NCBI GenBank assembly: GCA_030765235.1
Contig: JAVCCW010000021.1
Location: forward strand, 733 to 64,732
DNA from: Candidatus Gorgyraea atricola
Lineage (GTDB): Bacteria > Omnitrophota > Gorgyraeia > Gorgyraeales > Gorgyraeaceae
Length of the DNA stretch: 64,000 bases
Direction: 5' to 3'
Part shown: piece by piece, positions 2,840 through 48,302 of the stretch
Numbering within the stretch: the first letter of the stretch is position 1
Layout: each line of letters starts with the position of its first letter
Notes under the pieces: generated by a model
The model's database searches: none
Seen by the model: the letters and a program-made list of their open reading frames with translations, nothing else
What the model was told of the DNA's origin: nothing
Translations under genes and position numbers: made by a program

Positions 2840-4480
2840 ATGAAAAAAGTCAGGATTGCAATTGCGCAGATAAATACCATTGTAGGGGATCTGGTAGGCA
2901 ATACAGAGAAGATACTGTTCTGTCTAAATGAGTCACTCAAAAAGCGCGCAGACATTGTTGTGTTTCCAGAACTTTCCATAACAGGATATCCACCTGAAGG
3001 CCTTGTCTTAAAACCGCATTTCGTAAAAGAAAATCTTAAATGTCTAAATGTGATCGCAAAGGCCGCAAAAGACATCATAGCGATAGTCGGATTTGTGGAC
3101 CAAAAGGCCAAGGATCTATATAATAGCGCCGCAGTTATAAATAATAAAAAAATAATCCACGTATATCATAAAAGACATCTTCCAAGCTACAGCGTATTTG
3201 ACGAAAAGCGATATTTTAAGCCTGGCAGAGAGAATGCTCTTTTAAAGGCGAAAGGCTATTCTTTTTCAGTAAATATATGTGAAGACATTTGGACGAAAGA
3301 AGATGCTAAAACAAAAGCACTTATAAAGCGCGCGGATTTTCTAATAAACATCTCTGCCTCTCCGTATCATATTGATAAAATAGAAGAGAGGGAGAAACTG
3401 TTGCTTGCCAAGGCCAAAAGATTCAAGACGTCTATAATCTACTGTAATCTCATTGGTGGACAGGATGAACTTGTGTTTGATGGCCGCAGCGCCATATTTG
3501 GAAAATCCAATAAAATTATAGCAAAGGCCAGGGCCTTTGAAGAGGATTTATTGATAGTCGATTTGCCAGAGTACCTCCGCAACCCCGGAGGTTGCCATTC
3601 TGGCAACCTCCGGGGTTGCGGAGGTATGACAAAGATTGAAGAGATCTATTCAGCGCTTGTACTGGGACTGCGTGATTATGTCAGAAAGAATAATTTTAAA
3701 AAAGTGGCGTTTGGGCTTTCAGGAGGCATAGATTCTGCACTAGTTGGCGCACTTGCAGTTGAGGCCCTGGGCAAAGCGAATGTCCTGGCGCTTTCCATGC
3801 CATCGAAATACTCTTCAGCAGCCACTCAGCAGGATGCTGAAGGGATTGCAAAGAGTCTCGGTGTTAGATTTGCAAAGGTTCCAATAGATAGCATATTTAA
3901 TGCATATAATAATACACTCCAGACCCACTTTGCCGGCATGGATCCTGATATAACAGAGGAGAATATCCAGGCAAGGATACGCGGGAATATTCTTATGGCG
4001 TTTTCAAATAAATTCGGATACCTTGTTCTCAATACAGGCAATAAGAGCGAGACAAGCGTAGGGTATTGTACTCTATATGGAGACATGGCAGGTGGATTTG
4101 CCGTGATAAAGGATGTACCTAAGAATCTTGTTTATGAATTAGCGAGATTTGTGAATAAGAAAAAAGAAATTATTCCAAATAGCGTCTTTAAGAGGCCGCC
4201 CTCAGCAGAGTTAAGGCCAGGCCAGAAGGATCAGGATAGCTTACCGCCTTATGATTTAGTCGACGCTATAGTCGATCTATACGTAGAAAAGGACAGATCT
4301 TTCAGCGATATTATGAAGAAATTAAAGAATAAAGATATTGTCAAAAAGGTTTTAAGTATGATTGATATGAATGAATATAAGCGTCGTCAAGCACCTCCTG
4401 GAATAAAAATAAGTCCTCGAGCTTTTGGAAAGGACAGGCGCATGCCTATTACGAATAAGTATAAGGGAGGCAGTATATGA
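2840..4480 (+). CDS. nadE: glutamine-dependent NAD+ synthetase (CN-hydrolase + NAD synthetase domains)
   Basis: N-terminal nitrilase-like domain, C-terminal SGGIDS PP-loop; contains an in-frame 55-bp palindrome in the linker. Confidence 0.85.
   Translation: MKKVRIAIAQINTIVGDLVGNTEKILFCLNESLKKRADIVVFPELSITGYPPEGLVLKPHFVKENLKCLNVIAKAAKDIIAIVGFVDQKAKDLYNSAAVINNKKIIHVYHKRHLPSYSVFDEKRYFKPGRENALLKAKGYSFSVNICEDIWTKEDAKTKALIKRADFLINISASPYHIDKIEEREKLLLAKAKRFKTSIIYCNLIGGQDELVFDGRSAIFGKSNKIIAKARAFEEDLLIVDLPEYLRNPGGCHSGNLRGCGGMTKIEEIYSALVLGLRDYVRKNNFKKVAFGLSGGIDSALVGALAVEALGKANVLALSMPSKYSSAATQQDAEGIAKSLGVRFAKVPIDSIFNAYNNTLQTHFAGMDPDITEENIQARIRGNILMAFSNKFGYLVLNTGNKSETSVGYCTLYGDMAGGFAVIKDVPKNLVYELARFVNKKKEIIPNSVFKRPPSAELRPGQKDQDSLPPYDLVDAIVDLYVEKDRSFSDIMKKLKNKDIVKKVLSMIDMNEYKRRQAPPGIKISPRAFGKDRRMPITNKYKGGSI
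3572..3626. repeat. 55-bp GC-rich perfect palindrome (26-bp arms) embedded in frame in nadE linker
   Basis: TACCTCCGCAACCCCGGAGGTTGCCA ttc TGGCAACCTCCGGGGTTGCGGAGGTA; encodes PEYLRNPGGCHSGNLRGCGGM. Confidence 0.8.
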
Positions 4481-4758
4481 AAGGACAAACCAACGAAGAG
4501 GTTTTTATAAATGTGGTCAAAAGGATTAATCTTTATTTAATTATACTAGGTGTAATTTTTCTTGTATATTTTTTAATTCAGATTAAAGTGAATGTATTTT
4601 TGTTTCTGCTGGCGCTCTTGAATGTAGGCTTTGCGCTCCTTTCCCACAAGCACCTTATAATAACGAATAGGCTTGCGATTGAGCTGAGGCGCGCAAAAGA
4701 ATCGCTGGGTGATATTTCAAAAGAGATGAAGGACATACATCCGGACTTACATGCATAG
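4477..4758 (+). CDS. small membrane protein, hypothetical
   Basis: two hydrophobic helices; overlaps nadE stop (ATGA). Confidence 0.3.
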   Translation: MKGQTNEEVFINVVKRINLYLIILGVIFLVYFLIQIKVNVFLFLLALLNVGFALLSHKHLIITNRLAIELRRAKESLGDISKEMKDIHPDLHA

Positions 4759-5548
4759 GCGCTTACATTCGATACTCCTAATACCCTTCCTTTTTTTAAG
4801 TCTATTTAGCTTTTCAGAGAAAGATGTTTCTATCAGCGCAGAGTCAGCTGTACTTATGTCGCCGATAATGAAAAGAATAGTGTATTCTAAGAATCCTAAT
4901 CTTAGACTCTCACCCGCCTCTACAACAAAGATAATGACCGCAATTGTAGTTTTAAAAAACTCCTCTCTCGATAAAGAGGTTACTGTCAGCAAGCGTGCCG
5001 CTTCAATGGAACCATCCAAGGTCTATATAAAAAAAGACGAGATCTATCTAACAGGGGATTTGCTTAAGGCTTTACTTTTGAACTCTGGAAATGATGCGAG
5101 CGTTGCACTTGCCGAGAACGTTGCAGGGTCAGAAGAGGAATTTGTGGAGATGATGAATAAAGCCGCGAAGGGCATAGGGGCTAAAAATACGCATTTCAAG
5201 ACATCCAATGGTCTTCCTGCAGAAGGCCAGTATTCTACAGCATATGATCTGGCCTTAATAGTGCGCGAGGCAATGAGGCACGAGGAGATTGTTGAAATAA
5301 TGAAGAAAAAGACGGATCAGATAAAAGAAGTCAGAACCGGAAGGGTTATAAAATTAAGAAGTCACAACAAGAGTCTATGGAAGGATACGCCCTATAAGAT
5401 GTTAGGAAAGACAGGTTATACCAAAAAGGCAGGCAGTTGCTTTGCAGGATATATAGACTATAATAGATGGAGAAGGCTTATCATAGTGATTTTAAAGAGC
5501 AAGACTAAATGGCAAGACCTGGGAGTATTGGCAGAGGCTGCATTGTGA
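4751..5548 (+). CDS. D-alanyl-D-alanine carboxypeptidase (low-MW PBP5 family, short form)
   Basis: SxxK (ASTTK), SGN (NSGND), KTG (GKTGYT) motifs, signal peptide. Confidence 0.75.
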   Translation: MHRRLHSILLIPFLFLSLFSFSEKDVSISAESAVLMSPIMKRIVYSKNPNLRLSPASTTKIMTAIVVLKNSSLDKEVTVSKRAASMEPSKVYIKKDEIYLTGDLLKALLLNSGNDASVALAENVAGSEEEFVEMMNKAAKGIGAKNTHFKTSNGLPAEGQYSTAYDLALIVREAMRHEEIVEIMKKKTDQIKEVRTGRVIKLRSHNKSLWKDTPYKMLGKTGYTKKAGSCFAGYIDYNRWRRLIIVILKSKTKWQDLGVLAEAAL

Positions 5549-6228
5549 GAAAATCTTTGATTTTAATAATTTTTATATTTTTATTTTGCCGCATATCTAT
5601 TGCAGCGCCAGTGTACGGGACACACATGCCTAAAGAAAGGCGTTTTACATGCGGGCTAGAAGGGAATTTTATAGTCGATAGGAACCTGGATAATGACGAA
5701 GGCGCGACAAGCGGTGATAGATATTTTTTTACTCTCTCGTACGGTATTTTTTCATGGCTCTCGTTTGACGGGAAAATAGGCGTTGGTGATGCAGGCTGGC
5801 ATAGGATCGGAGCGGATGATCTGAGTTATGCTACTAATTTCGCAGGCGGCTATGGATTTAGGGTGAGAGGATATGAAATAGAGGAATGGGGCATAAAGAG
5901 CGTCGCGGGTTTCCAGCATATAAGTGTACATTCTGATGCAAAGAATCAGGGCGGGGATAAACATGATGCAATAATAGATGAGTGGCAAGGCTCTTTGGTT
6001 GTTTCTAAGGATATAGGGAGCCTTGTGCCGTATTTCGGCACAAGATACGGCACAGTTGATTTTATAAAATGGCTGAACGAACATGACCGCAAACGCATCC
6101 AGTCAGAAAAATACTATGGCCTTATCATAGGCTTAGATTATTGGCTCAGCGACAAAACAAAGATAAATTTAGAATGTGATTTTCTGGATGGCGAGGAGTT
6201 CGCGCTAGGTTTTAGCCGTGATTTTTGA
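5545..6228 (+). CDS. outer-membrane beta-barrel protein (GTG start)
   Basis: signal peptide, alternating amphipathic strands, C-terminal Phe. Confidence 0.45.
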   Translation: MRKSLILIIFIFLFCRISIAAPVYGTHMPKERRFTCGLEGNFIVDRNLDNDEGATSGDRYFFTLSYGIFSWLSFDGKIGVGDAGWHRIGADDLSYATNFAGGYGFRVRGYEIEEWGIKSVAGFQHISVHSDAKNQGGDKHDAIIDEWQGSLVVSKDIGSLVPYFGTRYGTVDFIKWLNEHDRKRIQSEKYYGLIIGLDYWLSDKTKINLECDFLDGEEFALGFSRDF

Positions 6229-6235
6229 CAACCTT

Positions 6236-9484: not shown

Positions 9485-11041
9485 TCATTTCTTAGTCTTT
9501 CTTCGCGCTCGTTTTTTCCACGCGATTCTAACCATAATACCAAGCGTCAGAAACATACCTATAAGCATAAGCCGTATACCTAATACATACGGCTTATCTA
9601 CTTCGCTTATACCCTTCATCATTATTGTAGGAATACCATGCTGGTAAAACCAGAATCCAAGTATACAGAATAAAAATAAAGGCGTTATGTATTTTATTAT
9701 GAACTTGTAGATCTCTGGTATCTTAAGGTCTGCGCCGTGATGCATCTCTTCCCAAGCCTTTTCTATGCCAAATACCCAGCCGAAAAGGATTGTTTCAATT
9801 GTAGCGAAAAGTACGAGGCAGAATGTGCCTCCCCAGAAATCTAATTCGTTCACTGCGCCGTGTTTTAAAAATAATATAGCTGGCTGACAGAGTATAAAAG
9901 AGATTATGCCAAAGATAATGACTGCTTTTTTCTTTGAGATATTGAACTCATCCTCGAGAAACGCGATGCTGGGCTGCGCAAGAGATACAGAAGATGTAAT
10001 ACCTGCCAGGAATAAAAGTGTAAACCACATACATCCAAAAAACGCGCTCAGCGCGATCTTCTGGAATATTAGAGGCATTGTGACAAACCCGAGATTAAAC
10101 GCGCCGCCTGCCGCAATAGCCTGTATCTTGTGCGGTCCAAAGAATATGTACGCCGCTGGTATTATAATGGACGAGCCAAGTATGATCTCGGCAAATTCAT
10201 TTGTGCTCGCGGCTGTCAGGCCTGAGAGCGCGACATCATCTGTCTTTTTAAGGTAGCTCGCGTAGGTCAATATTACGCCTATACCTACGCTGAGCGTGAA
10301 GAATATCTGTCCAGCTGCCGCGAGCCAAACCTTCGCGTTTTTTAATGAAGCAAAATCAGGATTCCATAGGAAACCCAAGCCATTTACTATATTCCATTCG
10401 GGCCTTGATGGATCAGGTGTACCTAAGGTCAAGACCCTTACAGCTATTATTATGCCGAATATTAAAAGCGCTGGCATTGCGATCTTGCAGAGCTTTTCAA
10501 TGCCTCCGGAAATGCCTTTATAGATGATAAACATGTTGATGATAAATGTTATGAGGAAGAATAGATACGCGGATTGCATATTTGAGAAAAACTGGTTTTT
10601 CTCAATGCCTTGGAACCCGCGTAAGAGCGACATCATGCTTTCCTGGTCAGCAAGCTGCCCGTATTTCCCAACTGCTGAAAAAACAGCATAGGCAAGTGTC
10701 CATGACGCGATATAGTTATAGTAGATGAAGATTACAAGTGGGCCAAAGATCCCAATAATACCAAAGTATTTTATGAAGCGGTTTTTCTCCCACATGGTAT
10801 TAAAGATCCCGGGCGCGGTGCCATGGCCAAACCCGCCGCCAAGTCTCCCAACTGTCCATTCTATCCACATTAGCGGTATGCCGAGTAGAAGAAGAGAGAT
10901 AAAATAAGGTATCATGAACGCGCCGCCGCCATTCTGCGCAGCCTGCACAGGAAACCTCAAGAAGTTCCCCAACCCCACAGCACTCCCAGCAACAGCCATG
11001 ATAATACCAATCCGAGATTTCCAACTATCCCGCTTTCGCAT
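9485..11041 (-). CDS. neurotransmitter:sodium symporter (NSS/SLC6) family transporter
   Basis: WKSRIGIIMAVAGSAVGLGNFLRFP ... NGGGAFMIPY signature; start moved to ATG 11041. Confidence 0.85.
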   Translation of the reverse strand: MRKRDSWKSRIGIIMAVAGSAVGLGNFLRFPVQAAQNGGGAFMIPYFISLLLLGIPLMWIEWTVGRLGGGFGHGTAPGIFNTMWEKNRFIKYFGIIGIFGPLVIFIYYNYIASWTLAYAVFSAVGKYGQLADQESMMSLLRGFQGIEKNQFFSNMQSAYLFFLITFIINMFIIYKGISGGIEKLCKIAMPALLIFGIIIAVRVLTLGTPDPSRPEWNIVNGLGFLWNPDFASLKNAKVWLAAAGQIFFTLSVGIGVILTYASYLKKTDDVALSGLTAASTNEFAEIILGSSIIIPAAYIFFGPHKIQAIAAGGAFNLGFVTMPLIFQKIALSAFFGCMWFTLLFLAGITSSVSLAQPSIAFLEDEFNISKKKAVIIFGIISFILCQPAILFLKHGAVNELDFWGGTFCLVLFATIETILFGWVFGIEKAWEEMHHGADLKIPEIYKFIIKYITPLFLFCILGFWFYQHGIPTIMMKGISEVDKPYVLGIRLMLIGMFLTLGIMVRIAWKKRARRKTKK

Positions 11042-11077: not shown

Positions 11078-11126
11078 ATCCTCTAAAGTAGACAAAACAG
11101 TCAGTGACTGTTTTGTCTACTTTAGG
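11078..11126. repeat. perfect palindrome CTAAAGTAGACAAAACAGTCA|GTGACTGTTTTGTCTACTTTAG between divergent genes; half-copy again at 44040-44090
   Basis: seen in sequence. Confidence 0.8.
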
Positions 11127-11182: not shown

Positions 11183-14100
11183 ATGTCAGGGTTTGATAAA
11201 TTCTATAAAGAACTTAATGTAGAGCAGAAGATGGCTGTAGATACAGTGGATGGGCCGGTGTTGGTCCTTGCCGGGCCTGGGACTGGGAAGACTCAGCTTT
11301 TATCTGTTCGTGCCGCTAATATTATCCGTACGGAAAAGGTCCTGCCTGAGAATATTCTGATTCTTACCTATACAAATGCCGCTACAAAGACCATGAAGGA
11401 GCGTTTGGCAAAGATCATTGGGTTTAAGGGCTATGACGTGCATGTTTCTACCTTCCATAGTTTCGCTAACTCCATAATACTTGATTCAGAAGAGGCCTCG
11501 AATTATATCCAGGAGAGGATTCAGATCACAGATATCGAGAATCTAAAGGCCATAGAATATGTACTGGATCATTCTAAGGATGTTTCTGATATAAGGCCTT
11601 TTCGCGCGCCATATACATACGTTAGGGAGATACAAAAAAGGATAAGCGACCTTAAGAGAGAAGGCATAAGCCCGGAAGAATTTTCTAAATACGTTAAAGA
11701 CATAAAACCTGACAATGTATATGTTGAGCAAAAACATATCCCGCGCATAAAGGCACTGGCAATCGTCTATAGCCAGTATGAAAAACTCAAGGAAGGAAAA
11801 AATAAAGACATATTCGACGAGCGCGGGAGATATGACTATGACGACATGATCATGATCGCGATGGACGCGATAAATAAAGAAAAGCTACTTAAAGAAAAAT
11901 ATCAGCAGCTTTATAAATACATAATGGTGGACGAGTTCCAGGACACAAATGGCGCACAGCTTAAATTCTTATTCTCTCTTATAAAGGATGCGCATTCTAA
12001 TCTCTGCTGCGTAGGAGATGATGACCAGTCTATCTATCGGTTCCAGGGCGCAAGCATCGCTAACTTTAAAGAACTAAAAAAGAAATTCAAGGATCTGAAA
12101 ACAATTTCCCTTAAAGACAATTACCGCTCAGTAAAAGAGATCATAGACCTTTCGCAGAACCTCATAAAAGAACTTCCTCAAAATGAGCGCATAGGAGAAA
12201 AATCCCTTATATCAAAAGTAGATTTTAAGAAAAAATCAATAGAATACAGGGAATTTACCGCTAATGAAGAAGAGCTCTGTTTTATCGTCGAGCGGATAAA
12301 GCAGTTATGCGCTAAAGAAAAAGGCCTTTCTTACGACGACATTGCGGTATTAGTAAGAAAGAGAAGCCTGATCCCGAGGATAATAGACGCGTTGCTTCAG
12401 GCAGGCATCCCGTATGCTACTGATGGGAAAGAAGACATAAGAAGCGAGATGCGCGTAAGACAGATGCTGGATATCCTGGAGCTTGCGAGCATTGAACCTC
12501 AGGATTTTGGGGAAAGAGACAGGATCTTATATAAGATCCTCATAGCTGATTATTTCGAGATCCCGCACAAGGATATCCTGGATTTTATAAACAAGGTCAA
12601 TAAGAAAAAGAAAAATAGAGAAAATGTTACGCTTCTCTCAGAATTTTTTAAAGACAAAGATTTTAAAGATACAGCTGCCATAATAGAAAAATTCTTAAAA
12701 GAGAGTCTGTTTAAACCTGTGCATGCAGTGCTCATGGAATACATCAGGGACGCAGGGATCTATAAATATATCCTTAAGACCTACGACAAGGATGAAGTCT
12801 TAAGGATCAGGCAGGTACGCGGCCTTGCTTCGTTCGTAAACATGGTAAAGGAATATGATCTTTCAAATCCTGGCATAGATTTGAAGAAATTCATAGAGGA
12901 GATCAAGACGCGCAACGAACATAATCTCGCTATCCAGGGAGAGCTTGTCACAATGACGCAGAATGGCGTAAGGATCTTTACTGCGCATGCCTCAAAGGGG
13001 CAGGAATTCCACAGCGTGATAATTCCTTTTTGCCTGCAGGACGATAGCTGGCCCATAAAACCAATGCCTGATAAGATCCCTCTTGGACCTGAGATACTGG
13101 GAGGCATTGAAAAGGTGGATAGTAAAGAAAGAATAAAAAAGTTGAGATTCTATGACGAGACAAGACTTTTTTATGTGGCCATAAGCAGAGCAAAGAGCAA
13201 TATACTTTTTACATGCAGCCCTAAAGAGAACAAGATCTCCAGTTCGTTTATCCATAGATTGGATCTAGAGACCAAGGAGAACTTCTTTAAGGAGGAGGAT
13301 GTACTGGCCGGATCTTTGATCAAAGCGGATTTTAAAGATCCTTTTGTAGGCACTGAGAAGATCCTGGGTGATATGGTCAAGGATATGACTTTGAATCCCA
13401 CAAGCATAAATAACTATCTATACTGCAGGAGAAAATTTCTCTATGACAATGTCCTGATGCTTCCAGGCGCAAAGAAACAGAGCCTGATCTTTGGTAATGC
13501 AGTGCATGAGGGCCTGGAGCATGTGTACGGGCATTTTATGAAGACAGATAAATTTCCGGATTTTCAGTTTTTTAAAGATAGATTTTCTGACGCGTTGAAA
13601 TACCAGGGCCCTGAGAAGGCAATAGAGCTTCGCTGTAAAGAACAGTTCGAGGGGTTGAGGAGATTTTTTAGCAGGATATCTTCAAATCCTGTCAAGCCTA
13701 TTGGTCTGGAGAATCGTATGCCAATAAATATTGACGGCATTATCATTACTGGAAAATACGATAGATTAGACATAGAAGACAATAATGAAAAATCACTTCG
13801 CGTAGTAGACTATAAAACAGGCCAGCCAAGGAATCATGCAAAGGGTATCTTCCAGTGCAAGAGCCTGGAGGATGAATCCTGCGATGGTTATCTTCGTCAG
13901 CTCGCGTGCTATAAACTTTTATACGAAAAGGACAAGACGCGAAAGGACAATGATCTATTTGTGAGTCATGGCGTGGTGATATTCGTAGAGCCTGCAAAAG
14001 AGGATGTGCGCAGTTATGGAATAAAAAAGGGCGAGCCCACTGAATTTAAGGTCGAACTCAGGGAAGAAATGGTAGATGAAATGGTAGGCATAATAAAGAG

Positions 14101-15676: not shown

Positions 15677-15806
15677 TCGGAAGTTACTTAATGTTATGGA
15701 ATGTTTCGTAAGGTTATGGAAGGTTACAAAAAATACTGTGATTTAAAGATTTTTTATGCAACTTTCCATAACATTCCATAACTTTCCGAAACCTTAAGTA
15801 ACATCC
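15677..15806. promoter_or_regulatory. symmetric array of four 13-mers GTTATGGAA(N)GTT (two forward, two inverted) flanked by GTTACTTAA / TTAAGTAAC, upstream of moxR-bat operon
   Basis: seen in sequence. Confidence 0.5.
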
Positions 15807-18317: not shown

Positions 18318-19303
18318 GATTTGCCAATCCATTATTTTTAATATTACTTGGTATTATTCCTTTAATGATCTGGGATTATTTCAGGCGCGCTAAAGTCCGC
18401 GAGGCCAATCTTATATTTTCAGACATCTCGATCGTTAAGACGGTACAGCCTGGCTTTCGTGTTAGATATCGACACGTCCCAATGATTTTGCGTATAGTTG
18501 CCGTATTTATCTTTATCCTTGCCCTGGCAAGGCCTCAGGCAGGCCAGATGGAGGAGGAGATCATAACAGAAGGCATTGATATCATGCTCACGCTTGACAC
18601 CTCTAGCAGTATGAAGGCAGAAGATTTTAAGCCGCAAAATAGATTGGGCGCGGCCAAAGAGGTAATAAGCGAATTTATTAAATCAAGGAAGAATGATAGG
18701 ATCGGCCTTGTGGTTTTTTCAAGGTCCAGCTTTACTCAATGCCCGCTTACGCTTGATTATGGGGTGCTTTTGGATCTATTGGATAAGATAGATATAGGCA
18801 TGATAGAAGACGGTACAGCCATAGGTACTGCGATTGCAAATTCTGTTAATAGACTCAGAGATTCTAAAGCCAAAAGTAAGGTCATCATCCTGCTTACAGA
18901 CGGCATCAATAACGCGGGAAAGATAGACCCTCAAACAGCAGCAAAGGCGGCCCGGGCGCTCGAGGTAAAGATATATACTATAGGCGCTGGCAAGCCTGGA
19001 GGAGCGATGTATCCTGTAGATCATCCTATCTTTGGAAAAAGATACGTGCAGATGGATACAGAGATAGATGAGGCGCTTCTTAAAGAGATCGCAGAAGAAA
19101 CAGGAGGCATATATTTCAGAGCAAAGGATGAAAAAGGGCTCGAGGAAATTTACGAGACCATAGGTAAGTTAGAGAAGACCGAGATTGAGACAAAGGAGTA
19201 CGCGAATTATCACGAGCTTGCCACTGGTTTTATTTTGCCAGGATTTGTTGTGTTTTTACTAGGAACTATTTTGGGGAATACATTGTTTAGGAAGATTCCT
19301 TAG
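18314..19303 (+). CDS. batA: BatA, VWA-domain membrane protein
   Basis: MIDAS DxSxS (LDTSSSM), N- and C-terminal TM. Confidence 0.8.
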   Translation: MRFANPLFLILLGIIPLMIWDYFRRAKVREANLIFSDISIVKTVQPGFRVRYRHVPMILRIVAVFIFILALARPQAGQMEEEIITEGIDIMLTLDTSSSMKAEDFKPQNRLGAAKEVISEFIKSRKNDRIGLVVFSRSSFTQCPLTLDYGVLLDLLDKIDIGMIEDGTAIGTAIANSVNRLRDSKAKSKVIILLTDGINNAGKIDPQTAAKAARALEVKIYTIGAGKPGGAMYPVDHPIFGKRYVQMDTEIDEALLKEIAEETGGIYFRAKDEKGLEEIYETIGKLEKTEIETKEYANYHELATGFILPGFVVFLLGTILGNTLFRKIP

Positions 19304-19376
19304 GGACAAGTGACAAGTAACAAGGGACAAGGAGCATCTAAACCCCCTTGTCTCTTGTCTCATGTCCCTTGTCCCT
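19303..19376. repeat. imperfect hairpin built of GGGACAAG repeats (batA-batB intergenic)
   Basis: GGGACAAGTGACAAGTAACAAGGGACAAGG ... CCTTGTCTCTTGTCTCATGTCCCTTGTCCC. Confidence 0.75.
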
Positions 19377-19400
19377 AACATGTAATCCAAAGGAGCAAAG

Positions 19401-20402: not shown

Positions 20403-21184
20403 GATCATTAAAGTTCTTGGTGATAATAGTATTCTTTTTTTCAACAATTGGCTGGATATGGCAGAGACCTACTGTAAAAAAGAGTAAAGAAGCGGCTAAA
20501 TTGCACGACGAGGGTAAATTAGACGAGGCACTTTCAAAATGGCGCGATGCGCAGATAGAGAGCCCGGATAAAAAAGAATTGCATTACAATATAGGAGGAG
20601 CGCTGCACGAACAAAAAAGATACGACGATTCATCTAAGGAATACGAAAAAGTACTGGATACAAAAGATGATGAACTTAGGGCCAAGACGTATTATAATAT
20701 TGGGAATACGCTTTACAGGATGGAGAAATTACCTGAGGCGATAGAGGGCTATGAAAAGTGCTTAGAGATAACCCCTGATGATGAAGATGCAAAGTATAAT
20801 ATAGAGTTTATCAAGAAGAAGTTGGAGGAACAAAAACAACAGCAGCAACAGGATCAAGAGGGACAAGAAACAAGGGACAAGGGACAAGAGCAGGAACAAC
20901 GAGACAAAGAGGAACAAGGAACAAGAGACAAGGGACAAGAGCAGGAAGAGCAACAGGATCAAGGGGGACAAGGGACCCCGAACCAGTCGCTTCGCTCCGG
21001 TACGGGGCAGGCAAGAGACAAGGGACAAGAGGAAGAGCAGCAACGTTCAAGTGATGAGCAAGAAATGTCTGAAGAAGACGCCATGCGTCTTCTCGATGCC
21101 ATAAAGGATGATGAAAAAGACCTGCAAAAGGAATTAAGGGTACAACCAATAGAAGGCCGCTATAAAGTGGACAAAGACTGGTAA
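20399..21184 (+). CDS. batC: BatC, TPR-repeat protein with Q/E/D/K-rich low-complexity tail carrying GGGACAAGGGA-family repeats
   Basis: TPR segment; repeat block 20860-21030. Confidence 0.7.
   Translation: MRSLKFLVIIVFFFSTIGWIWQRPTVKKSKEAAKLHDEGKLDEALSKWRDAQIESPDKKELHYNIGGALHEQKRYDDSSKEYEKVLDTKDDELRAKTYYNIGNTLYRMEKLPEAIEGYEKCLEITPDDEDAKYNIEFIKKKLEEQKQQQQQDQEGQETRDKGQEQEQRDKEEQGTRDKGQEQEEQQDQGGQGTPNQSLRSGTGQARDKGQEEEQQRSSDEQEMSEEDAMRLLDAIKDDEKDLQKELRVQPIEGRYKVDKDW
20965..21029. repeat. GGGACAAGGGA-CCCC-hairpin-GGGGCAGGCAAG-GACAAGGGAC element in frame in batC
   Basis: near-identical flanks to the element in the hypF-like gene at 47868-47967. Confidence 0.7.
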
Positions 21185-21196: not shown

Positions 21197-23026
21197 ATGA
21201 AAAAAAGTTTAGTTGTATTGTTATTATTGTTTGCAGTGACTGCTGTCTACGCCCAGGATATTTCTATATCTGCCAATGTAGACAAGCAGGAGATAACTCT
21301 GGATGATCAGATTATTCTTAACATAGTTGTAAGCGGCAGTGTTTCAAAGATCCCGCAGCCAACCATACCCAGTCTTGACGGATTCACTGCATATTCTTCC
21401 GGAAGGTCGCAGAATATCTCAATTATAAATGGCCAGGTAACAGGTTCAGTTTCTTTTAATTATATGCTTGTTCCCAATGATGTCGGCGAGTATACACTGG
21501 GCCCATTCAGCATTGATTATAAAGGTAATACATATTCTGCTGATGCAATAGATATAAAGGTATTGCCACGCTCCACGCAGTCACAAGCGCCATCATATGC
21601 TGCTCCGGATTACACGGAGGGACAAGGGACAAGGGATAAGGGACAAGGAAAAGAACTTTTTATCGAGACATATGTGGATAAACTTAGGGCTTATGTGAAT
21701 GAACAGATAACTTTAACGTTTGCTTTTTATCAGGCTGTGAATCTATTTGAAAATCCTGTTTATAATCCAGCTTCCACCACAGGCTTCTGGACAGAGGATA
21801 TGCCTCCGCAGAAAAAATATTATAAAGTAATAAACGGCACAAAATATCTGGTCACAGAGATAAAGACAGCGCTTTTTGCGACAAGTCCTGGAGAATTTAC
21901 CATTGGTTCAGCAAGGCTTGAGGCAAGCGTGGAGGACCTGGAGAGATTTTCCTCCCGCAGTCCTTTTGATATATTCGGCAGAGATCCATTTAGCGTGTTC
22001 AGGAGAGGTAAGCCTGTTATTCTTGCCACAGATCCAATAAATGTAGAGATATCAGCATTGCCAGAAGAGGGCAAGCCTCTGAATTTTAAAGGCGACGTGG
22101 GCACTTTTGATATCAGCGGCACTATAGATAAAGACACAGTTGAAGAAAACCAGCCTGTTACATTAAGGATTGTAATAAAAGGAAAAGGGAATATAAAGAC
22201 GATCTCCTCTCCAGGTATTCCGGAATCCTCAGATGTGAAATTCTATGACTCAGCAAGCTCTGAAAATATCTCTAAAGAAAATTACCTGGTCCAGGGAGAA
22301 AAGATCTTTGAAAAGATGATCATTCCCAAAAGCGAGGGCAGACTTACAATAGGGCCTATTGAATATTCTTATTTTGATCCGGTCTTGAAAAGGTATATTG
22401 AAAGAAGAATCGAACCAATGACGATAAATGCGACGGTATCTGAAGAAGAGCCGCAAGCGACCATGCCTTTTTCAATACCAGGCCTATCGAAAGAAGAGAT
22501 AAAGCTTTTGAAGAAAGATATATGTTATATTAAGACCAGCCCCATTAATTTCAGAAAAAGTGATTCTTTTTTCTATAAGAATAAAGCGTTTTACTTGATA
22601 AATATACTGCCGCTCGCGTTTCTTATATTCCTTTATATGTACGAGCTTCACAGGGAGAGGCTGAAGACTGACATAGGATACGCGCGTTCGCGCAGAGCCA
22701 GGGGAGCGGCCTCAAAGAGACTGAAAAAAGCAAGACAGCTCATGTTAAAGGAGAAGGTGAAAGAGTTTTACGCCGAGATCTATAAGGCGGTAATAGAATA
22801 TGTAGCTGATAAATTAAATATACCACACCCTTCTATTACAAAGGATCTACTTGAAGAAAAATTGAAGTCAAAGGGTCTTTCAGAGTCAGCTATAGCAGAG
22901 ATAAAGGAGTTGTTCGACATTTGCGACATGGCCAGATTTGCTTTGGTAAAATTTACAAAGGAAGACATGCATAAGACGATCGAACAGGCCATTGATATCA
23001 TTGCAGAGCTCGAGAGGGTGAGATGA
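21197..23026 (+). CDS. batD: BatD-like protein (signal peptide, C-terminal TM)
   Basis: operon position and architecture; contains in-frame GGGACAAGGGACAAGGGATAAGGGACAAGG at 21612-21645. Confidence 0.7.
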   Translation: MKKSLVVLLLLFAVTAVYAQDISISANVDKQEITLDDQIILNIVVSGSVSKIPQPTIPSLDGFTAYSSGRSQNISIINGQVTGSVSFNYMLVPNDVGEYTLGPFSIDYKGNTYSADAIDIKVLPRSTQSQAPSYAAPDYTEGQGTRDKGQGKELFIETYVDKLRAYVNEQITLTFAFYQAVNLFENPVYNPASTTGFWTEDMPPQKKYYKVINGTKYLVTEIKTALFATSPGEFTIGSARLEASVEDLERFSSRSPFDIFGRDPFSVFRRGKPVILATDPINVEISALPEEGKPLNFKGDVGTFDISGTIDKDTVEENQPVTLRIVIKGKGNIKTISSPGIPESSDVKFYDSASSENISKENYLVQGEKIFEKMIIPKSEGRLTIGPIEYSYFDPVLKRYIERRIEPMTINATVSEEEPQATMPFSIPGLSKEEIKLLKKDICYIKTSPINFRKSDSFFYKNKAFYLINILPLAFLIFLYMYELHRERLKTDIGYARSRRARGAASKRLKKARQLMLKEKVKEFYAEIYKAVIEYVADKLNIPHPSITKDLLEEKLKSKGLSESAIAEIKELFDICDMARFALVKFTKEDMHKTIEQAIDIIAELERVR

Positions 23027-23928: not shown

Positions 23929-26217
23929 ATGCAGGTAGAAGTAAATGGCTCAAAAAAATTGAATATCTCTGAGAATTGTCTAAAGGTCCTTGAGAGAAGA
24001 TATCTCAAAAAGGACAAAGAGGGAAAAATTATAGAGACCCCTGAGGAGATGTTCATCAGGGTCAGTCGTCATATAGCATCGGCAGATAAACTTTATGGCG
24101 CGAAAGACGCTGATGTAAAAAAGACAGAAGAAGATTTTTATAATATGATGAGTAGTTTTGAATTCATGCCGAATAGCCCTACGCTTATGAATGCTGGAAA
24201 AGACCTTGGTCAGTTATCCGCCTGCTTTGTACTTCCCATTGGAGACTCAATGGAATCCATATTTGACGCGATAAAAAATACCGCTATGATTCATAAAAGT
24301 GGCGGAGGAACAGGATTTAGTTTTTCAAGACTACGCGGGAAGAATAGTGTTGTACGTTCTACAGGAGGCGTTTCGAGTGGCCCTGTCTCTTTTATGAAGG
24401 TATTTAATTCTGCAACTCAAGCTGTGAAGCAGGGAGGCACTCGTCGCGGGGCCAACATGGGAATCCTGCGTGTAGATCATCCTGATGTCCTGGAATTCAT
24501 CAAATGCAAAGAGAACGATAAAGACATAACTAACTTTAACATCTCTATCGCTATTACAGAAGATTTTATGAACCGCGTTATAGAAGATAAAGAGTATGAT
24601 TTGATAGATCCGCATACAAAAAAGGCAGTAGAAAAGCTTAAGGCCAAAGAGGTCTTTGAGCTGATAGTTGAGATGGCGTGGAAAAATGGCGAGCCAGGCA
24701 TTGTTTTTATCGATAGGATCAATAAAGACAATCCCACTCCGGAATCAGGAGAGATCGAATCCACTAATCCATGCGGGGAGCAGCCTCTTTTACCTTTTGA
24801 GAGCTGTAACCTTGGTTCGATAAATCTTTCAAAAGCAGTTGTAGAGAAAAATGGAAAGAAAGAAGTAGATTGGGAGAAATTAAAAACGCTTGTGCATCAG
24901 GGGTCTCATTTTCTTGACAATGTCATTGATATGAATAAATTTCCGCTCAAAGAGATAGAGGAAAACACTAAAAAGAATCGTAAGATCGGTCTTGGTGTAA
25001 TGGGCTGGGCAGATATGTTGATCCAGCTGGAGATATCTTATAATAGCGACAAGGCAATAGAATTAGCTGAAAAGGTAATGGGCTTTATTGATAAAGAGGC
25101 CAAGAAAAGATCTGAGGAGTTAGCTCAAAAACGCTCTACATTCCCCTCGTTTAAAGACAGTATTTTTAAAGACGACAAAGAGATAAAGCGAAATGCCACA
25201 TTAACGACTATAGCGCCCACAGGCACCATATCGATTATATCCAATACCTCTAGCGGGATCGAGCCTCTATTTGCGATCTCTTATTATAGAAATGTAATGG
25301 ATAATGACAAGCTGATCGAAGTCAATTCATTGTTCGAAGAGATTGCAAAAAGAGAAGGTTTTTATTCCAGAAAGTTAATGGAGGAGATCGCTGATAAAGG
25401 TTCTGTAAAGGATGTAAAAGATGTACCTGAAAAATACAGGAAGATATTTGTTACTTCACATGATATCGTTCCTATCTGGCACATAAGGATGCAGGCAGCA
25501 TTCCAGAATCATACTGATAACGCAGTTTCAAAGACAGTAAATTTTCACAATGAGGCATCGAAGGATGATGTCAGGGAAGTCTACATGCTCGCATATAAAT
25601 TGGGTTGTAAAGGCGTAACTATTTATAGAGACAAAAGCAGGGAGGAACAGGTGTTGAATGTAAGTTCAAAAAAGACCAAGTCTAAGCCAGCCCAGGATGC
25701 TGGTGCAAAAGAAAAACACGTTGCGCCACGGCCAAGACCCGCAGTGACAACAGGCACCACCACAAAGGTCAATACAGGCTGTGGTAATCTTTATATTACG
25801 ATAAACGTAGATGATAATGCCATGCCTTTCGAGGTATTCATCCAGATGGGCAAGGCTGGTGGTTGTGCCGCATCTCAGCTCGAGGCAGTAGGAAGGCTTG
25901 TGTCTCTGGCGCTTCGTTCCGGTGTGGAGAACAAGAAGATCGTGGACCAGTTAAGAGGAATACGCTGTCCATCCCCGTCATGGGAAAAAGGCGGGAGGAT
26001 CTTTTCATGTGCTGATGCTATTGCCAGAGTCCTGGAGCTCAGGTTAGGCAATGGAAAGATGCACCATAAAGAAGAAGCGCTTGAGAAACATTCGCCGCAC
26101 ACTATGATAGAAGATAAACTGGGCAATGTCGTGGGCGTGTGTCCTGATTGCGGCGCTGCATTACGTCATGAAGAAGGCTGCGTAGTCTGCCGCTCGTGCG
26201 GTTATTCCAAATGTTAA
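23929..26217 (+). CDS. nrdJ: class II adenosylcobalamin-dependent ribonucleotide reductase with C-terminal Zn ribbon
   Basis: active-site NPCGEQPL, C-terminal CPDCGAAL...CVVCRSCG. Confidence 0.85.
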
Positions 26218-28548: not shown

Positions 28549-28591
28549 AATGAGTAGTAGTAGCCCAGGTTTAAACCTGGGCTACTACGCC

Positions 28592-33638: not shown

Positions 33639-33669
33639 TCCTTGTCCCTTGTCCCTTGTCCCTTGTCCC
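33639..33669. repeat. (CTTGTCC)x4 tandem heptamer, reverse complement of the GGGACAAG family
   Basis: seen in sequence. Confidence 0.8.
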
Positions 33670-33685
33670 TTTTTCTCCCCCTACC

Positions 33686-33757: not shown

Positions 33758-33923
33758 GTGAGGACACGATTTACGAAAATCAAAGATTTTCGTAAATCGT
33801 TTGTCCGAACTTGACCCCCACACCAATTTCTAAGCATACCAAAAGATGTCTGCTTAAATTGGTGTGGGGGTTTAATTCGCACAGCAACTTATGTTCACTT
33901 CGTTCCATAAGTTGCGTGCTCAT
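33758..33923 (+). mobile_element. MITE-like composite element copy A: hairpin + CCCCCACACCAATT / AATTGGTGTGGGGG inverted repeats with a short loop, then AATTCGCAC-hairpin-GTGCTCAT abutting the start codon
   Basis: shares all modules with copies at 49556-49977 and 50970-51156; partial copy at 1813-1889. Confidence 0.6.
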
Positions 33924-43115: not shown

Positions 43116-44054
43116 ATGAAATTAGCAGTCTTAGGGGCAGGGGGATTAGGTAAGGCGTGTTTGGATGTTGTGGCAAAGAAAAAAGACGCTAAGGTTGTCG
43201 CGATCTGTGATTCAGAGGGGTATCTATATTCTGAGAAAGGCATAACTACTCAAGATCTGGGAAGATCCAGGGCCTCAAAGGACCCCATAGGCGAGATCAT
43301 AAAGTTAAAAAATAAATACGACGGTATTTTTGTAGCGCTTCCGAATTTGCCAAATGAATTTATTCCAAACGTAGTAAAGCGTTTCATAAAAGCAAAATAC
43401 AGCGGAGTTTTTACATGCGCGTTGAAGCGCACAAGCGCGATGAAATTAATGATGAAATTAGATGCCGGATTGAAGAAGAACAAAAGCACCTATATAGCCG
43501 GGTGCGGCGCAACACCAGGACTTTTATCAGCTGCGGCAGTGTTGGCAGCGCAGTCATTTACAGAGATCGAGGATGTAAATATCTGGTGGGGGGTAGGTAT
43601 CTCGAACTGGGATACATACAGGGCAACGATCAGAGAAGACATTGCGCATCTCCCAGGTTATACAGTCATGCGCGCAAAAAGAATGACAGATAAAGACGTG
43701 AATGATCTTTTAAATAAGAGAGATGGAAAGCTTGAGCTGCGTAATATGGAACACGCTGACGATGTCTTGCTCAAAAAAGCAGGCGTTGTGGATTCCATGA
43801 AAAAGGTTTCAGTGGGCGGCGTAATGGATACAAGGCATGCAAAAAAGCCTGTTTCCACGACCATGACACTCACAGGCACGACATTCGAAGGTAAGCGTTC
43901 CAGTCACAGGTTCATACTTGGAGACGAGACATCCATGGCAGCCAATGTGATCGGCCCTGCGCTCGGCTACCTGAAGCGCGCCATCTGGCTAAAACAACAC
44001 AAGATCTACGGCATATTCGGCTCCACAGAATTCATGCCCATGATCCTAAAGTAG
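43116..44054 (+). CDS. NAD(P)-binding Rossmann oxidoreductase in the bioA position; candidate BioU-type (S)-8-amino-7-oxononanoate to DAPA enzyme
   Basis: VLGAGGLGK dinucleotide fold; located between bioB and bioF with no bioA in the cluster. Confidence 0.4.
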   Translation: MKLAVLGAGGLGKACLDVVAKKKDAKVVAICDSEGYLYSEKGITTQDLGRSRASKDPIGEIIKLKNKYDGIFVALPNLPNEFIPNVVKRFIKAKYSGVFTCALKRTSAMKLMMKLDAGLKKNKSTYIAGCGATPGLLSAAAVLAAQSFTEIEDVNIWWGVGISNWDTYRATIREDIAHLPGYTVMRAKRMTDKDVNDLLNKRDGKLELRNMEHADDVLLKKAGVVDSMKKVSVGGVMDTRHAKKPVSTTMTLTGTTFEGKRSSHRFILGDETSMAANVIGPALGYLKRAIWLKQHKIYGIFGSTEFMPMILK

Positions 44055-44075
44055 ACAAAACAGTCACTGACGGAA

Positions 44076-46112
<2,037 letters not shown>

Positions 46113-46156
46113 CTTTATATTTGAAATAGACTTATTTGATGTTAAAATAGAATATT

Positions 46157-47182
46157 ATGAAGATAAGGGGAAAATTTCTCACAACTGGAATAGGTAGTCT
46201 GCCGCTTCTTGATGCGAAGAAGGGTGTTGAAGTGGTCTGCAAAAATTTTGACATACCATTCTGGCCCCAGCTTCCAAAAAGAGGTTTTAAAGAGAACATG
46301 TATACGCAGTTTGCCGTAGGGCTACCTTCCTTAGTTATAGACGAGAAAAATCGAAAGATCCACGTTGATAGCACAAAGGATTTGAGCGAAGAACTGGGCA
46401 AACTATACGAGTCCTATATATCAGAGGATTATGCTTCGCTTGGCCTTACAAAGGACTTTGCCGAGGGGTTTTACGCATTTTTAGACGCGGAAAAAAAGTT
46501 TGATCATGTAAAGGGTCATATTACAGGACCTATAAGTTTTGGCCTTGGTGTTACAGATGAAAAAGGAAAATCTATAATATATAATGACACGCTTAAAGAA
46601 GCACTGATCAAGCTTTTGGAGATCAAGGCTAGCTGGCAGATAGATAAACTAAAAGAACTTTCCAAAAATATCATAATATTTATAGATGAGCCATACCTAA
46701 CGAGTTTTGGTTCCAGTTATGTAAATTTAGAACGCCATGACGTAATCTTAGCGCTCAATGCAGTCATAGATAAGATCCACGCAAAAGGCTGCCTTACGGG
46801 TATTCACTGCTGTGGCAATACAGACTGGTCATTGCTCGCAGAGACATCAGTTGATATAATAAATTTTGATGCCTATTTATATGCGGAGAGCCTTTCGCTA
46901 TACCCTAAAGAAATAACAGGGTTTCTGAAAAAAGGAGGATATCTCGCATGGGGCATTGTACCTACGTCTGATTCAGTGTTGAAAGAGGACGAGAAGACCC
47001 TATTTAATAAATTATCCAAAGAAATAGCAAATCTGGAGAAAAAAGGAGTCCCTCGAAATTTATTGATCTCTAATTCTTTGCTTACCCCAAGTTGTGGCAT
47101 GGCTACGCTTTCCGAAGAGTTGACTAAAGATATAATAACAAAGCTTACCAAAGTTGCACAATTGGCAAAGAAAAACTTATAA
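46157..47182 (+). CDS. MetE C-terminal-domain-like (URO-D/CIMS family) Zn-dependent methyltransferase, short form
   Basis: IHCCGNTD and TPSCGMAT resemble MetE Zn ligand motifs (H.C ... C). Confidence 0.5.
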   Translation: MKIRGKFLTTGIGSLPLLDAKKGVEVVCKNFDIPFWPQLPKRGFKENMYTQFAVGLPSLVIDEKNRKIHVDSTKDLSEELGKLYESYISEDYASLGLTKDFAEGFYAFLDAEKKFDHVKGHITGPISFGLGVTDEKGKSIIYNDTLKEALIKLLEIKASWQIDKLKELSKNIIIFIDEPYLTSFGSSYVNLERHDVILALNAVIDKIHAKGCLTGIHCCGNTDWSLLAETSVDIINFDAYLYAESLSLYPKEITGFLKKGGYLAWGIVPTSDSVLKEDEKTLFNKLSKEIANLEKKGVPRNLLISNSLLTPSCGMATLSEELTKDIITKLTKVAQLAKKNL

Positions 47183-47189
47183 AGGTTAC

Positions 47190-48302
47190 ATGAAGACTAG
47201 AATTCTTGCACTAGGTGCGCAGTCAAAAGGCAGCTTTTGCCTTATTAAAAATGGAAAACTCCATGTTTCAAACTCCTTTGGAGACCTGAGTGAGGCAGAG
47301 AATTTTCATCGCTTTGAAAAAGAGATAAAAAAAATAAAACCAGAGCCAAAGCTTATAGCGTGCGATATGCATCCGGAATATGCTTCAACTAAGCTGGCAA
47401 ATAATTTAGCTAAAAGCGTAAAAAGGATTCAGCATCATGAGGCGCATGTGGCAAGCTGCATCGCAGATAATAATATTAAAGGTAAGATAATAGGCATTGC
47501 ATTTGACGGCACTGGATTTGGCAGAGACGCTAATATCTGGGGCGGAGAGTTTTTTGTAGGTAGCATTAAAGACCTTAAGAGAGCAGCACATCTAAAATAC
47601 GCCTCTATGCCAGGAGGAGAAGCAGCAGTAAGAGAACCCTGGCGCATGGCCTTTAGCTATCTTCGTGCTTCTAATCTAGCAAATCTAACCAGGTTAGATA
47701 AGGAGAAAACAAGACTTCTCGCGCAGATGATGGATAAAGATATAAATTCGCCTCTTACTTCTAGCATGGGTAGACTTTTTGATGCAGTATCGTCGCTTGT
47801 TGGGATTTGTGATAGGGCAGAGTATGAGGGGCAGGCGGCGGTTGAGCTGGAGAGAGCTATTGAGGGACCCCATACGAAAATCAAAGATTTCGTACGGGGC
47901 AGGCAAGGGACAAGGGACCCCATACGAAAATCAAAGATTTCGTACGGGGCAGGCAAAGGACAAGGGAAGTATAGCTTCACATATAAAGATGGTATTATTG
48001 ATTGGACGCCGGTTATCAAGGCTATAGTTAAGGATTTAAAGGCTAAGAAGAGTAAGGGTGAGATTTCGCTTAAGTTTCATAATGCGGTTTGTCATATGAT
48101 AAAGGATGTCTGTATTTTATTGAGAAAGAAATATAAAATCAACAGGGTCTGTATGAGCGGCGGCGTGTTTCAGAATAAGTATTTATCGAAAAATACACCA
48201 CCACTTTTAGAAAAAGAGGGATTCAAGGTATATTTACATAAGAATTTGCCTAGCCACGACGGAAACATTGCGTTAGGCCAGGCAGTATTAGCCGGAGCAT
48301 AA
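47190..48302 (+). CDS. hypF: HypF C-terminal (Kae1-like carbamoyltransferase) domain only; carries a 2 x 50-bp tandem repeat insertion
   Basis: HHEAH motif, C-terminal SGGVFQN...HDGNIALGQA; no acylphosphatase/Zn-finger/YrdC part. Confidence 0.65.
   Translation: MKTRILALGAQSKGSFCLIKNGKLHVSNSFGDLSEAENFHRFEKEIKKIKPEPKLIACDMHPEYASTKLANNLAKSVKRIQHHEAHVASCIADNNIKGKIIGIAFDGTGFGRDANIWGGEFFVGSIKDLKRAAHLKYASMPGGEAAVREPWRMAFSYLRASNLANLTRLDKEKTRLLAQMMDKDINSPLTSSMGRLFDAVSSLVGICDRAEYEGQAAVELERAIEGPHTKIKDFVRGRQGTRDPIRKSKISYGAGKGQGKYSFTYKDGIIDWTPVIKAIVKDLKAKKSKGEISLKFHNAVCHMIKDVCILLRKKYKINRVCMSGGVFQNKYLSKNTPPLLEKEGFKVYLHKNLPSHDGNIALGQAVLAGA
47868..47967. repeat. two tandem 50-bp copies of CCCC-ATACGAAAATCAAAGATTTCGTA-CGGGGCAGGCAAGGGACAAGGGA inside the hypF-like CDS
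   Basis: seen in sequence; ORF stays open. Confidence 0.85.

Follow-up and report, generated by a model that had tools for sequence, protein, structure and literature searches.

Small repeats of three distinct kinds lie in protein-coding genes of Candidatus Gorgyraea atricola, a member of the Omnitrophota whose species description comes from Ace Lake, Antarctica (PMC8542988), and they are probably tolerated there because the reading frame is kept. They were studied in a stretch of 64,000 nt (the window) with a G+C content of about 41%, for which an initial annotation had listed GC-rich palindromes inserted in frame in nadE, batC, batD and a hypF-like gene and had likened them to the Rickettsia palindromic elements (RPE). 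These "palindromic elements" are arrays of the heptamer GGGACAA, a 36-nt hairpin module, and two long perfect palindromes, one in nadE and one in a PRK04334-family gene. The module combines precise insertion, many copies, occurrence in two phyla, conserved ends with variable cores, restriction to the sense strand and lengths divisible by three.

Syntenic loci of relatives at approximately 83–94% DNA identity were compared with the window and every indel was surveyed; WIN denotes the window sequence, L numbers the compared contigs or relatives and P numbers proteins. All insert-bearing open reading frames (ORFs) in the window remain open, and in the three genes where the position could be checked (nadE, batD and hypF-like) the inserts lie in variable loops or linkers. 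That the inserts are lineage-specific and keep the frame was borne out: orthologues at approximately 83–90% DNA identity lack them (nadE in L002 and L006, the hypF-like gene in L010, batC and batD in L008), with the same genes and synteny otherwise retained, and the encoded peptides are not shared by distant orthologues.

The 36-nt module and its landing site

In the module, CCCC is followed by a variable hairpin, then by GGGG and finally by a tail of CAGG. At the hypF-like site, L010 has no repeat, L009 has four clean GGGACAA units, and WIN has the same four units with two 36-nt inserts, in units 1 and 3, both between GGGA and CAAG (GGGA^CAAG). Comparison of the filled site of WIN with the empty site of L009 gives a clean gain of 36 nt without target duplication. 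L009, which has the heptamers without the hairpin, shows that the array pre-exists as the landing site of the module. The two tandem 50-bp copies of the initial annotation were recovered in frame by Tandem Repeats Finder (TRF; 47863–47967, 2.1 copies, 98% matches), and the CCCC-hairpin unit it had described in batC and the hypF-like gene is real, but is more aptly divided into a heptamer array and a distinct 36-nt insert.

The hypF-like protein comprises solely the C-terminal Kae1-like domains of HypF and covers positions 391–739 of TIGR00143. In an AlphaFold2 model with a mean pLDDT of 91.4, residues ~231–260 score 44–55, and the insert is predicted to occupy a disordered loop flanked by a helix and a strand. 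A strain with 99% protein identity (L031, positions 2230–2340; ENA ERZ27315536) has one 50-nt unit fewer in this gene; its frame is shifted, the ORF ends at 244 aa and the contig departs from the window near its end. This one-unit state represents a genuine on/off polymorphism or else a repeat that was collapsed; it is with two units, as in the window, that the conserved C-terminal half stays in frame.

The batC module has the same position within the heptamer unit and the same ends as the hypF-like ones, with another core, and is missing from L008. Its hairpin unit (CCCC...GGGGCAGG) is imperfect, with a fold no better than that of shuffled sequence (z = -0.3). The type B core was also found at the gene loci L032, L039, L049, L051, L065 and L068; type B variants could not be aligned into clean compensatory pairs. 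In L007, another heptamer array, (GAGAACC)x4.5 at 9803–9838 and absent from the window, lies 36 nt past the batC module.

Further copies were sought with the pattern GGGACCCC-N19-27-CGGGGCAGGCAA, with GGGA forced at the left and CAA at the right. A genome collection, which did not return the window copies and so does not include the source genome, gave 16 loci, approximately 9–10 of them high in GC and chance-like. The remaining matches, in Saccharibacteria, Terrybacteria, Roizmanbacteria, Yanofskybacteria and another Omnitrophica genome, are each in frame in a housekeeping gene. A metagenome scan gave 45 loci, many on Gorgyraea-like contigs (Ga0075121/Ga0075122) with type A or B cores in other genes, and a scan of viral contigs returned no module. 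In total, 23 genic module sites in 22 genes were counted, with Omnitrophota and four Patescibacteria lineages as hosts; at all 23 the module lies on the sense strand and the ORF runs through it. The host genes, as identified by Pfam, encode an epimerase, PCMT, Sua5/TsaE, DnaG, Pth, two glycosyltransferases, GATase, LeuRS (with two modules), LepA, QueA, PFOR, Map, DHODH, TGT, spermidine synthase, ParB, ferredoxin and DnaK.

Among the low-GC matches, 21 of the 24 distinct cores are 33, 36 or 39 nt long and the inner hairpin has a mean z of -1.9 against shuffles; the high-GC matches, taken as internal control, contain 7 multiples of three out of 22 and have a z of -0.05. Within one population, different genes carry identical 32-nt cores. 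The GGGA^CAAG position is common to batC, both hypF-like copies and most scan matches. The exception is L077 (Omnitrophota, GCA_018824725.1), found in a relaxed scan, where the module lies inside nadE with GGGTGAA heptamer flanks. This context delimits the fixed ends of the module as CCCC...CAGG and indicates a target that is heptamer-like rather than strictly GGGA^CAAG. DnaK of L075 without its module reads GGGGACAAA, in frame as Gly-Asp-Lys and plausible as native sequence, which suggests that single natural GGGACAA sites may also receive the module.

Heptamer arrays and long perfect palindromes

The sequence GGGACAAG occurs 17 times in the window against 1.4 expected, a count reached in none of 100 shuffles. 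Arrays of (GGGACAA)n are found both in genes and between genes and, as three units make 21 nt or seven amino acids, they read as GQGTRDK-type peptides. Of the four genes reported to carry palindromic inserts, nadE and the hypF-like gene indeed do and batC has its imperfect hairpin, whereas batD contains a heptamer array only; a single palindrome family was not upheld, and the heptamers are tandem repeats. The batD array is common to relatives at 90–91% protein identity and missing in P0125, and L008 has a different heptamer array, ACGGGTC/ACGGGAA, in its place. The array region of batC is rich in Q, E, K, G, T and R; its unit number differs in L007 and L008 has no array. By Pfam, batC matched TPR and batD PF13584. 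BatD of the window shows 100% identity to a protein from a metagenome-assembled genome of Candidatus Gorgyraea atricola, on the NCBI contig that also encodes the nadE and hypF-like products.

Two intergenic loci listed earlier were found again, with slightly different limits. The hairpin between batA and batB (19303–19376 in the initial annotation) is built from two inverted arrays and falls within a 94-nt stretch that is missing from L008; L007 has it with other unit numbers. The (CTTGTCC)x4 array contains 4.6 units. Four-unit GGGACAA arrays fit the G-quadruplex (G4) consensus and are predicted by ViennaRNA to form a G4, and the array at 33640–33671 fits the motif too.

Perfect 9-aa peptides that require a pure heptanucleotide repeat as coding sequence are present in 15 of 120 HypF-like homologues; the chance expectation is estimated to be essentially zero. 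These peptides imply at least 10 different units at two loop positions, hence the same loops have been taken repeatedly by arrays of differing units. Judged from the sequences compared, the GGGACAA arrays are specific to the Gorgyraea lineage and heptamer arrays as such are general in the Omnitrophota.

Two other tandem designs were observed in the window. An inverted repeat of GTTATGGAAG-type 10-mers at 15679–15806 (intergenic, 55-nt arms, 78% complementary) shares the "inverted tandem array" layout of the batA–batB hairpin and is largely missing in L007 and L008, with gaps of 90 nt and 14+52 nt respectively in pairwise alignments. ORF 60194–61996 contains a short, G-rich, in-frame octanucleotide repeat, (AACGGGCC)x4.6 at 61460–61495, encoding KNGPTGQRANGQRN.

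The perfect in-frame palindrome reported for the nadE linker was confirmed, with 26-nt arms and a 3-nt loop (aa 255–272; -58.8 kcal/mol, z = -10.2). It lies between CN_hydrolase (15–254) and NAD_synthase (280–528) on the numbering of ORF 2810–4480 (556 codons, Pfam domains), and NadE has NAD+ synthases of Omnitrophota as its homologues. The palindrome is common to WIN and L001; L004 carries a 37-bp variant of the same type, and in L002 and L006 the linker is ordinary, shorter by 18 nt and free of the palindrome. As L001 is 94% identical to L002 and yet carries the palindrome, either nadE alleles recombine or the event recurs. Between L004 and WIN, two double changes are mirrored on both arms, so that the arms change together and symmetry is kept, and the palindrome of WIN reaches 9 nt further out on each side. 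The outer right arm of WIN (9 nt, GCGGAGGTA) corresponds to unique flank in L004, GCAGAGGTA; the outer left arm falls inside a 12-nt gain.

A second long palindrome, in the PRK04334-family gene, has a folding energy of -47 kcal/mol (z = -10.2) and accompanies a gain of 30 nt relative to L009 and L010, both without it. Orthologues of this ORF have a precomputed PF27030 AbpE_bact hit; Pfam gave no match for the ORF itself (51476–52216) nor for the ORF upstream of the hypF-like gene. Both palindromes share the motif ACCTCCGC and each replaces part of the ancestral linker. The initial annotation had treated the nadE palindrome as an RPE-like insert, but neither palindrome has a second copy in the window and 595 kb of related loci (blastn-short returned orthologous nadE sites only), and the nadE one may have grown in place. 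A scan of viral contigs with the centre of the nadE palindrome gave four unrelated short palindromes only.

Whether these palindromes arose in place or are foreign was weighed separately. Template-switch (quasipalindrome) mutations create or perfect inverted repeats in place, usually with short arms. The symmetric arm changes between the L004 and WIN alleles of nadE resemble such events, whereas the arms here are 20–26 nt, GC-rich and only partly traceable to an ancestor. The half-linker from loop to ATG (right) in nadE is collinear with the ancestral linker (p = 0.0004–0.04), the left half is not, and in the PRK04334-family gene the left half is collinear with ancestral sequence (p = 0.0012). 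This is suggestive of an inverted duplication grown in place by template switching and possibly kept perfect by quasipalindrome correction, to which the traceable right outer arm, the 12-nt gain on the left and the single-copy state add. On the other side, local alignment of the arms alone with the ancestral linker was not significant, the middle of the left arm in the PRK04334-family gene differs from ancestral sequence at most positions, and the palindromes look foreign at 65–70% GC in a genome of 41% GC, with one motif in common. Other Omnitrophota NadE proteins (P0062, P0072, P0086 and P0087) have inserts of 25–45 aa in the same inter-domain linker, and nadE of L077 (2001–3767) has there a GC-rich multi-hairpin stretch of 126 nt containing the TCGCTTCGCTC motif; such GC-rich inserts at this position in other Omnitrophota are plainly of foreign origin, which also speaks against growth in place. 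An origin in place is a real possibility, held at somewhat under even, and a foreign origin is judged just on the probable side. Omnitrophota NadE also shows further inserts or heptamer-encoded peptides near aa 150–165.

Table 1. Repeats and associated genes in the window.
Feature	Position	Strand	Remarks
nadE, glutamine-dependent NAD+ synthase	2840..4480	+	546 aa as annotated, MDP8230309.1; Pfam CN_hydrolase + NAD_synthase
55-bp perfect GC-rich palindrome, nadE inter-domain linker	3572..3626	+	peptide YLRNPGGCHSGNLRGCGG
Intergenic batA-batB hairpin, two inverted GGGACAA-type arrays	19300..19378	.	33-nt arms, 85% complementary, -43.6 kcal/mol
Degenerate GGGACAA array in batC, upstream of module	20859..20975	+	TRF 20859-20941; rest to 20975 read from sequence
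Module, type B core (CCCCGAACCAGTCGCTTCGCTCCGGTACGGGGCAGG), in batC	20976..21011	+	in frame; same insert in L007 and L054
Heptamer units downstream of batC module	21012..21031	+	TRF
(GGGACAA)x4.4 array in batD linker	21618..21648	+	peptide GQGTRDKGQG; no hairpin, no predicted structure
Intergenic (GGGACAA)x4.6 array	33640..33671	-	CTTGTCC on + strand; TRF, 100% matches
MITE-like copies without ORF	~33758-33912 and 50966-51156		hairpins with type A core
HypF C-terminal (Kae1-like) domain protein, hyp operon	47190..48302	+	370 aa, MDP8230348.1; Pfam HypF_C, HypF_C_2
Whole hypF-like insert	47864..47967	+	four GGGACAA units broken up by two modules
Module, type A core (CCCCATACGAAAATCAAAGATTTCGTACGGGGCAGG), copy 1, hypF-like gene	47868..47903	+	read as PHTKIKDFVRGR
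Identical module, copy 2, hypF-like gene	47918..47953	+	other reading frame, PIRKSKISYGA
Composite MITE-like element	49559..49977	+	CCCCCACACCAATT/AATTGGTGTGGGGG hairpin encloses GIY-YIG ORF 49645-49887, 80 aa
PRK04334-family conserved hypothetical protein	51476..52216	+	NF003323, 291.9 bits vs cut-off 271
47-bp perfect palindrome, PRK04334-family gene	51680..51726	+	in frame, peptide PRRNLRQLCWRRFRLG; not in the initial annotation

Origin of the repeats and comparison with known systems

In the explanation preferred here, which as a whole is held to be likely, (GGGACAA)n arrays would arise and turn over fast, and a mobile module of 33–39 nt would enter G-rich, heptamer-like sites precisely, typically at GGGA^CAAG, without target site duplication (TSD) or terminal inverted repeats (TIR). 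The module may be non-autonomous and depend on an enzyme acting in trans, which would move it as a folded single strand and recognise the conserved GC foot of the hairpin and the flanking tetranucleotides. Selection would then keep only in-frame, stop-free copies on the sense strand and in loops, and the long palindromes would be either foreign hairpin DNA or inverted duplications grown in place by template switching. A specific mechanism of trans-mobilisation, as in IS200/IS605, REP-RAYT or the insertion of SDR5 into HIP1, is proposed by analogy and only tentatively. The GIY-YIG gene at 49645–49887, which lies in a larger hairpin element (CCCCC...GGGGG) that also has the type A core, is a candidate mobiliser.

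Several points weigh against this explanation. In the window, which is a part of the source genome, no mobilising enzyme was identified, the GIY-YIG ORF being the only nuclease candidate seen. Target specificity is directly shown solely by the empty site of L009, because the scan pattern fixed the GGGA and CAA flanks, and L077 shows that it is not absolute. The cores vary widely between lineages while the ends are identical, which copying followed by drift explains poorly, and the hairpin of type B folds weakly (z = -0.3 to -0.8). The sense-only bias could stem wholly from selection on the peptide or from gene orientation with respect to replication. Translation of the inserts is predicted from open frames, as are the encoded peptides, e.g. 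GTPNQSLRSGTGQAR, GPHTKIKDFVR and NPGGCHSGNLR.

The view of the initial annotation, that one or two families of selfish palindromes were transposed into the ORFs of all four genes in the manner of RPEs, is unlikely, although part of its basis stands: the inserts keep the frame and are specific to the lineage, the hairpin unit has many dispersed copies, and other Omnitrophota have obvious GC-rich multi-hairpin inserts in the same nadE linker. It is contradicted by the lack of a palindrome in batD, by heptamers that exist as tandem repeats without a hairpin in L009, by the single-copy state of the two long palindromes, which replace ancestral sequence and are no simple insertions, and by a module without TIR or TSD; moreover, all sizes are far under those of RPEs. 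Local errors without any mobile element, with slippage making the arrays and template switching or fold-back repair making hairpins and palindromes in place, would account for unit numbers that differ among close relatives, for the polymorphic 50-nt unit, for the seemingly stepwise and symmetric growth of the nadE palindrome from 37 to 55 bp, for the collinear half of each palindrome linker and for the single copy of each palindrome in the sequences compared. This view is nevertheless improbable as a whole, as the same 33–39-nt module with identical ends (CCCC...GGGGCAGG) sits at 23 unrelated gene sites in two phyla, the shared 32-nt cores recur in different genes, and the palindrome arms are GC-rich and unlike the ancestral linker in their middle. 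Gene conversion between heptamer arrays could spread modules, but leaves the copies without arrays unexplained.

A selected function was considered as well, such as ribosome pausing at domain boundaries by mRNA hairpins or G-quadruplexes, the marking of RNase III sites or phase-variation switching. The nadE hairpin lies exactly between the domains and ends with GGAGGT right before an ATG, whose Met opens the MTKIEE segment, shortly ahead of where Pfam places NAD_synthase; the changes between strains preserve symmetry, four-unit arrays fit G4 motifs and the one- versus two-unit state switches the hypF-like frame. The probability of such a function is low nonetheless, given that orthologues at 83–90% identity do without the inserts in the same genes and synteny, that the host genes are unrelated and the encoded segment is predicted to be disordered, and that no Rfam family matched anywhere in the window at gathering thresholds. 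Assembly artefacts (chimeric joins or mis-collapsed repeats in a metagenome-assembled genome) can hardly explain the inserts: L031 does differ by exactly one 50-nt unit, possibly a collapsed repeat, but the peptide of the nadE palindrome occurs in independent NCBI, JGI and ENA assemblies, the batC module was found in two further loci and the two-unit hypF-like state keeps the conserved downstream frame. Diversity-generating retroelements, CRISPR, integron attC sites and translational bypass were rejected, with open frames, multiple-of-three lengths and no associated genes seen.

Compared with known systems, the repeats explained here as an array-targeting module, its arrays and two palindromes share some features with RPEs, which are ~150 bp long, fall into about ten sequence families, are confined to Rickettsia and insert in frame in ORFs (PMC10969869). 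Both are dispersed and hairpin-capable and lie inside numerous unrelated housekeeping ORFs, whose products they lengthen by a peptide segment without loss of frame. The multi-copy nature of RPEs is matched by the module (23 sites, 22 genes) and not by the single-copy palindromes in nadE and the PRK04334-family gene, and the sizes (33–39 nt for the module, 47 and 55 bp for the palindromes) are too small. The Omnitrophota host also sets the repeats apart from the RPE families, a separation made by host and description and not by comparison with RPE sequences. Unlike RPEs, the module has a variable core and ~12 conserved bases, is tied to heptamer arrays and occurs in Omnitrophota and Patescibacteria. 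The RPE-type selfish palindrome of the initial annotation therefore holds as a dispersed, multi-copy, in-frame hairpin unit, but not as RPE membership, from which size, phylum and the lack of TIR and TSD separate it. Nor is the module a classical miniature inverted-repeat transposable element (MITE), which has TIR and TSD, its only inverted ends being CCCC/GGGG.

The closest analogues of module and arrays are the small dispersed repeats (SDR) of Nostocaceae and two kinds of heptamer repeat, the cyanobacterial short tandemly repeated repetitive sequences (STRR) and the G-rich repeats of the GGGNATC type. The cyanobacterial SDR4-6 of Elhai and colleagues (2008) are reportedly 21–27 nt in size. 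Likeness to the SDRs lies in the very small size and in precise insertion in a short iterated host motif (HIP1 versus GGGA^CAAG) without TIR or TSD; SDR5 inserts precisely between nucleotides 3 and 4 of HIP1 (PMC4390886). The landing site of the module, however, is a tandem heptamer and that of SDR5 an 8-bp palindrome, and there is no sequence similarity. SDR-like repeats have been reported only from Nostocaceae (PMC5861425), whereas the hosts of the module are Omnitrophota and Patescibacteria. G-rich heptamers of the GGGNATC type in Xanthomonas and Nostoc prefer four units, form G-quadruplexes, and are over-represented in non-coding DNA and under-represented in ORFs (PMC4692102). The window arrays agree in their tandem 7-nt units, GGG tract, dispersal, ~4 units and G4 consensus, but lie in three ORFs (batC, batD and hypF-like) against two intergenic loci, which is a small sample, and differ in that the same protein loops carry arrays of differing units across the Omnitrophota.

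Repetitive extragenic palindromic (REP) sequences are extragenic and conserved in sequence within a genome. The REP/REPIN-RAYT and IS200/IS605 elements have a GC-footed hairpin with an adjacent tetranucleotide, insert without TSD and show strand asymmetry. The module, with its hairpin of ~35 nt, CAGG tetranucleotide, strand asymmetry and lack of TSD, resembles them, and the relation is one of resemblance only; REPINs are discussed in PMC3116915. Unlike REPs, the module has varying cores with fixed ends and lies in genes.

Neither the sequences nor any mention of repeats in Omnitrophota or Gorgyraea papers turned up in full-text literature searches. The module may represent an undescribed class of ultra-small, ORF-adapted mobile DNA that targets heptamers, is shared (probably horizontally) by Patescibacteria and Omnitrophota and reshapes loops of DnaK, LepA, LeuRS and DnaG, a proposal in which we place rather less than even confidence. 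Should it prove truly mobile, few known colonisers of essential genes would be as small, and it would be a marker common to two ultra-small, possibly host-dependent groups, pointing to gene flow or a shared mobilising enzyme. The inserts are natural experiments on the tolerance of loops for insertions, the repeats create frame switches such as the one- and two-unit hypF-like alleles, and both can lead gene calling and annotation by homology astray in metagenome-assembled genomes. The study of slippage and template switching in genomes of never-cultured organisms can also draw on the heptamer arrays and the symmetric palindromes.

Other repeats in the window

The initial annotation had linked the hypF-like hairpin to those of a MITE-like element, and indeed the core ACGAAAATCAAAGATTT recurs in MITE-like hairpins at 33773 and 51121. 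The layout of this element is GTGAGGAC ... hairpin ... ACCCCCACACCAATT / AATTGGTGTGGGGGT ... AAATTCGCAC ... hairpin ... GTGCTCAT, and its variable hairpins show paired changes between copies (ACGAAAATC/GATTTTCGT, ACGACAATC/GATTGTCGT and ACGTCAATC/GATTGACGT). It is not at these sites in L009 and L010, and tblastn with the GIY-YIG protein found no further copy in the compared loci.

Three other palindromes were noted. A dispersed family, CTAAAGTAGACAAAACAGTCA / TGACTGTTTTGTCTACTTTAG, lies at gene ends (11083–11125 and 44041–44093) and also looks mobile, since in L009 it is at a different position (5871–5907). An intergenic family of perfect palindromes, GTAGTAGSCCAGGTTT/AAACCTGG..., was found at 28557–28588 and 52238–52275. 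The intergenic perfect palindrome CAGAAAAAACCGAGGCTGGACCTCGGC... at 56703–56763 has arms that are themselves hairpins, and recurs on the Gorgyraea-like contigs L049 and L051; in this recurrence in related loci it is unlike the palindromes of nadE and the PRK04334-family gene.

The ribonucleotide reductase ORF (23929–26217) is interrupted in relatives by an insertion of 1314 nt, at 13247–14560 in L007 and 13336–14649 in L008, with none in the window at 24437. No precomputed hits are on record for the L007 gene; the product of L008 has precomputed Intein_splicing and LAGLIDADG_3 hits.

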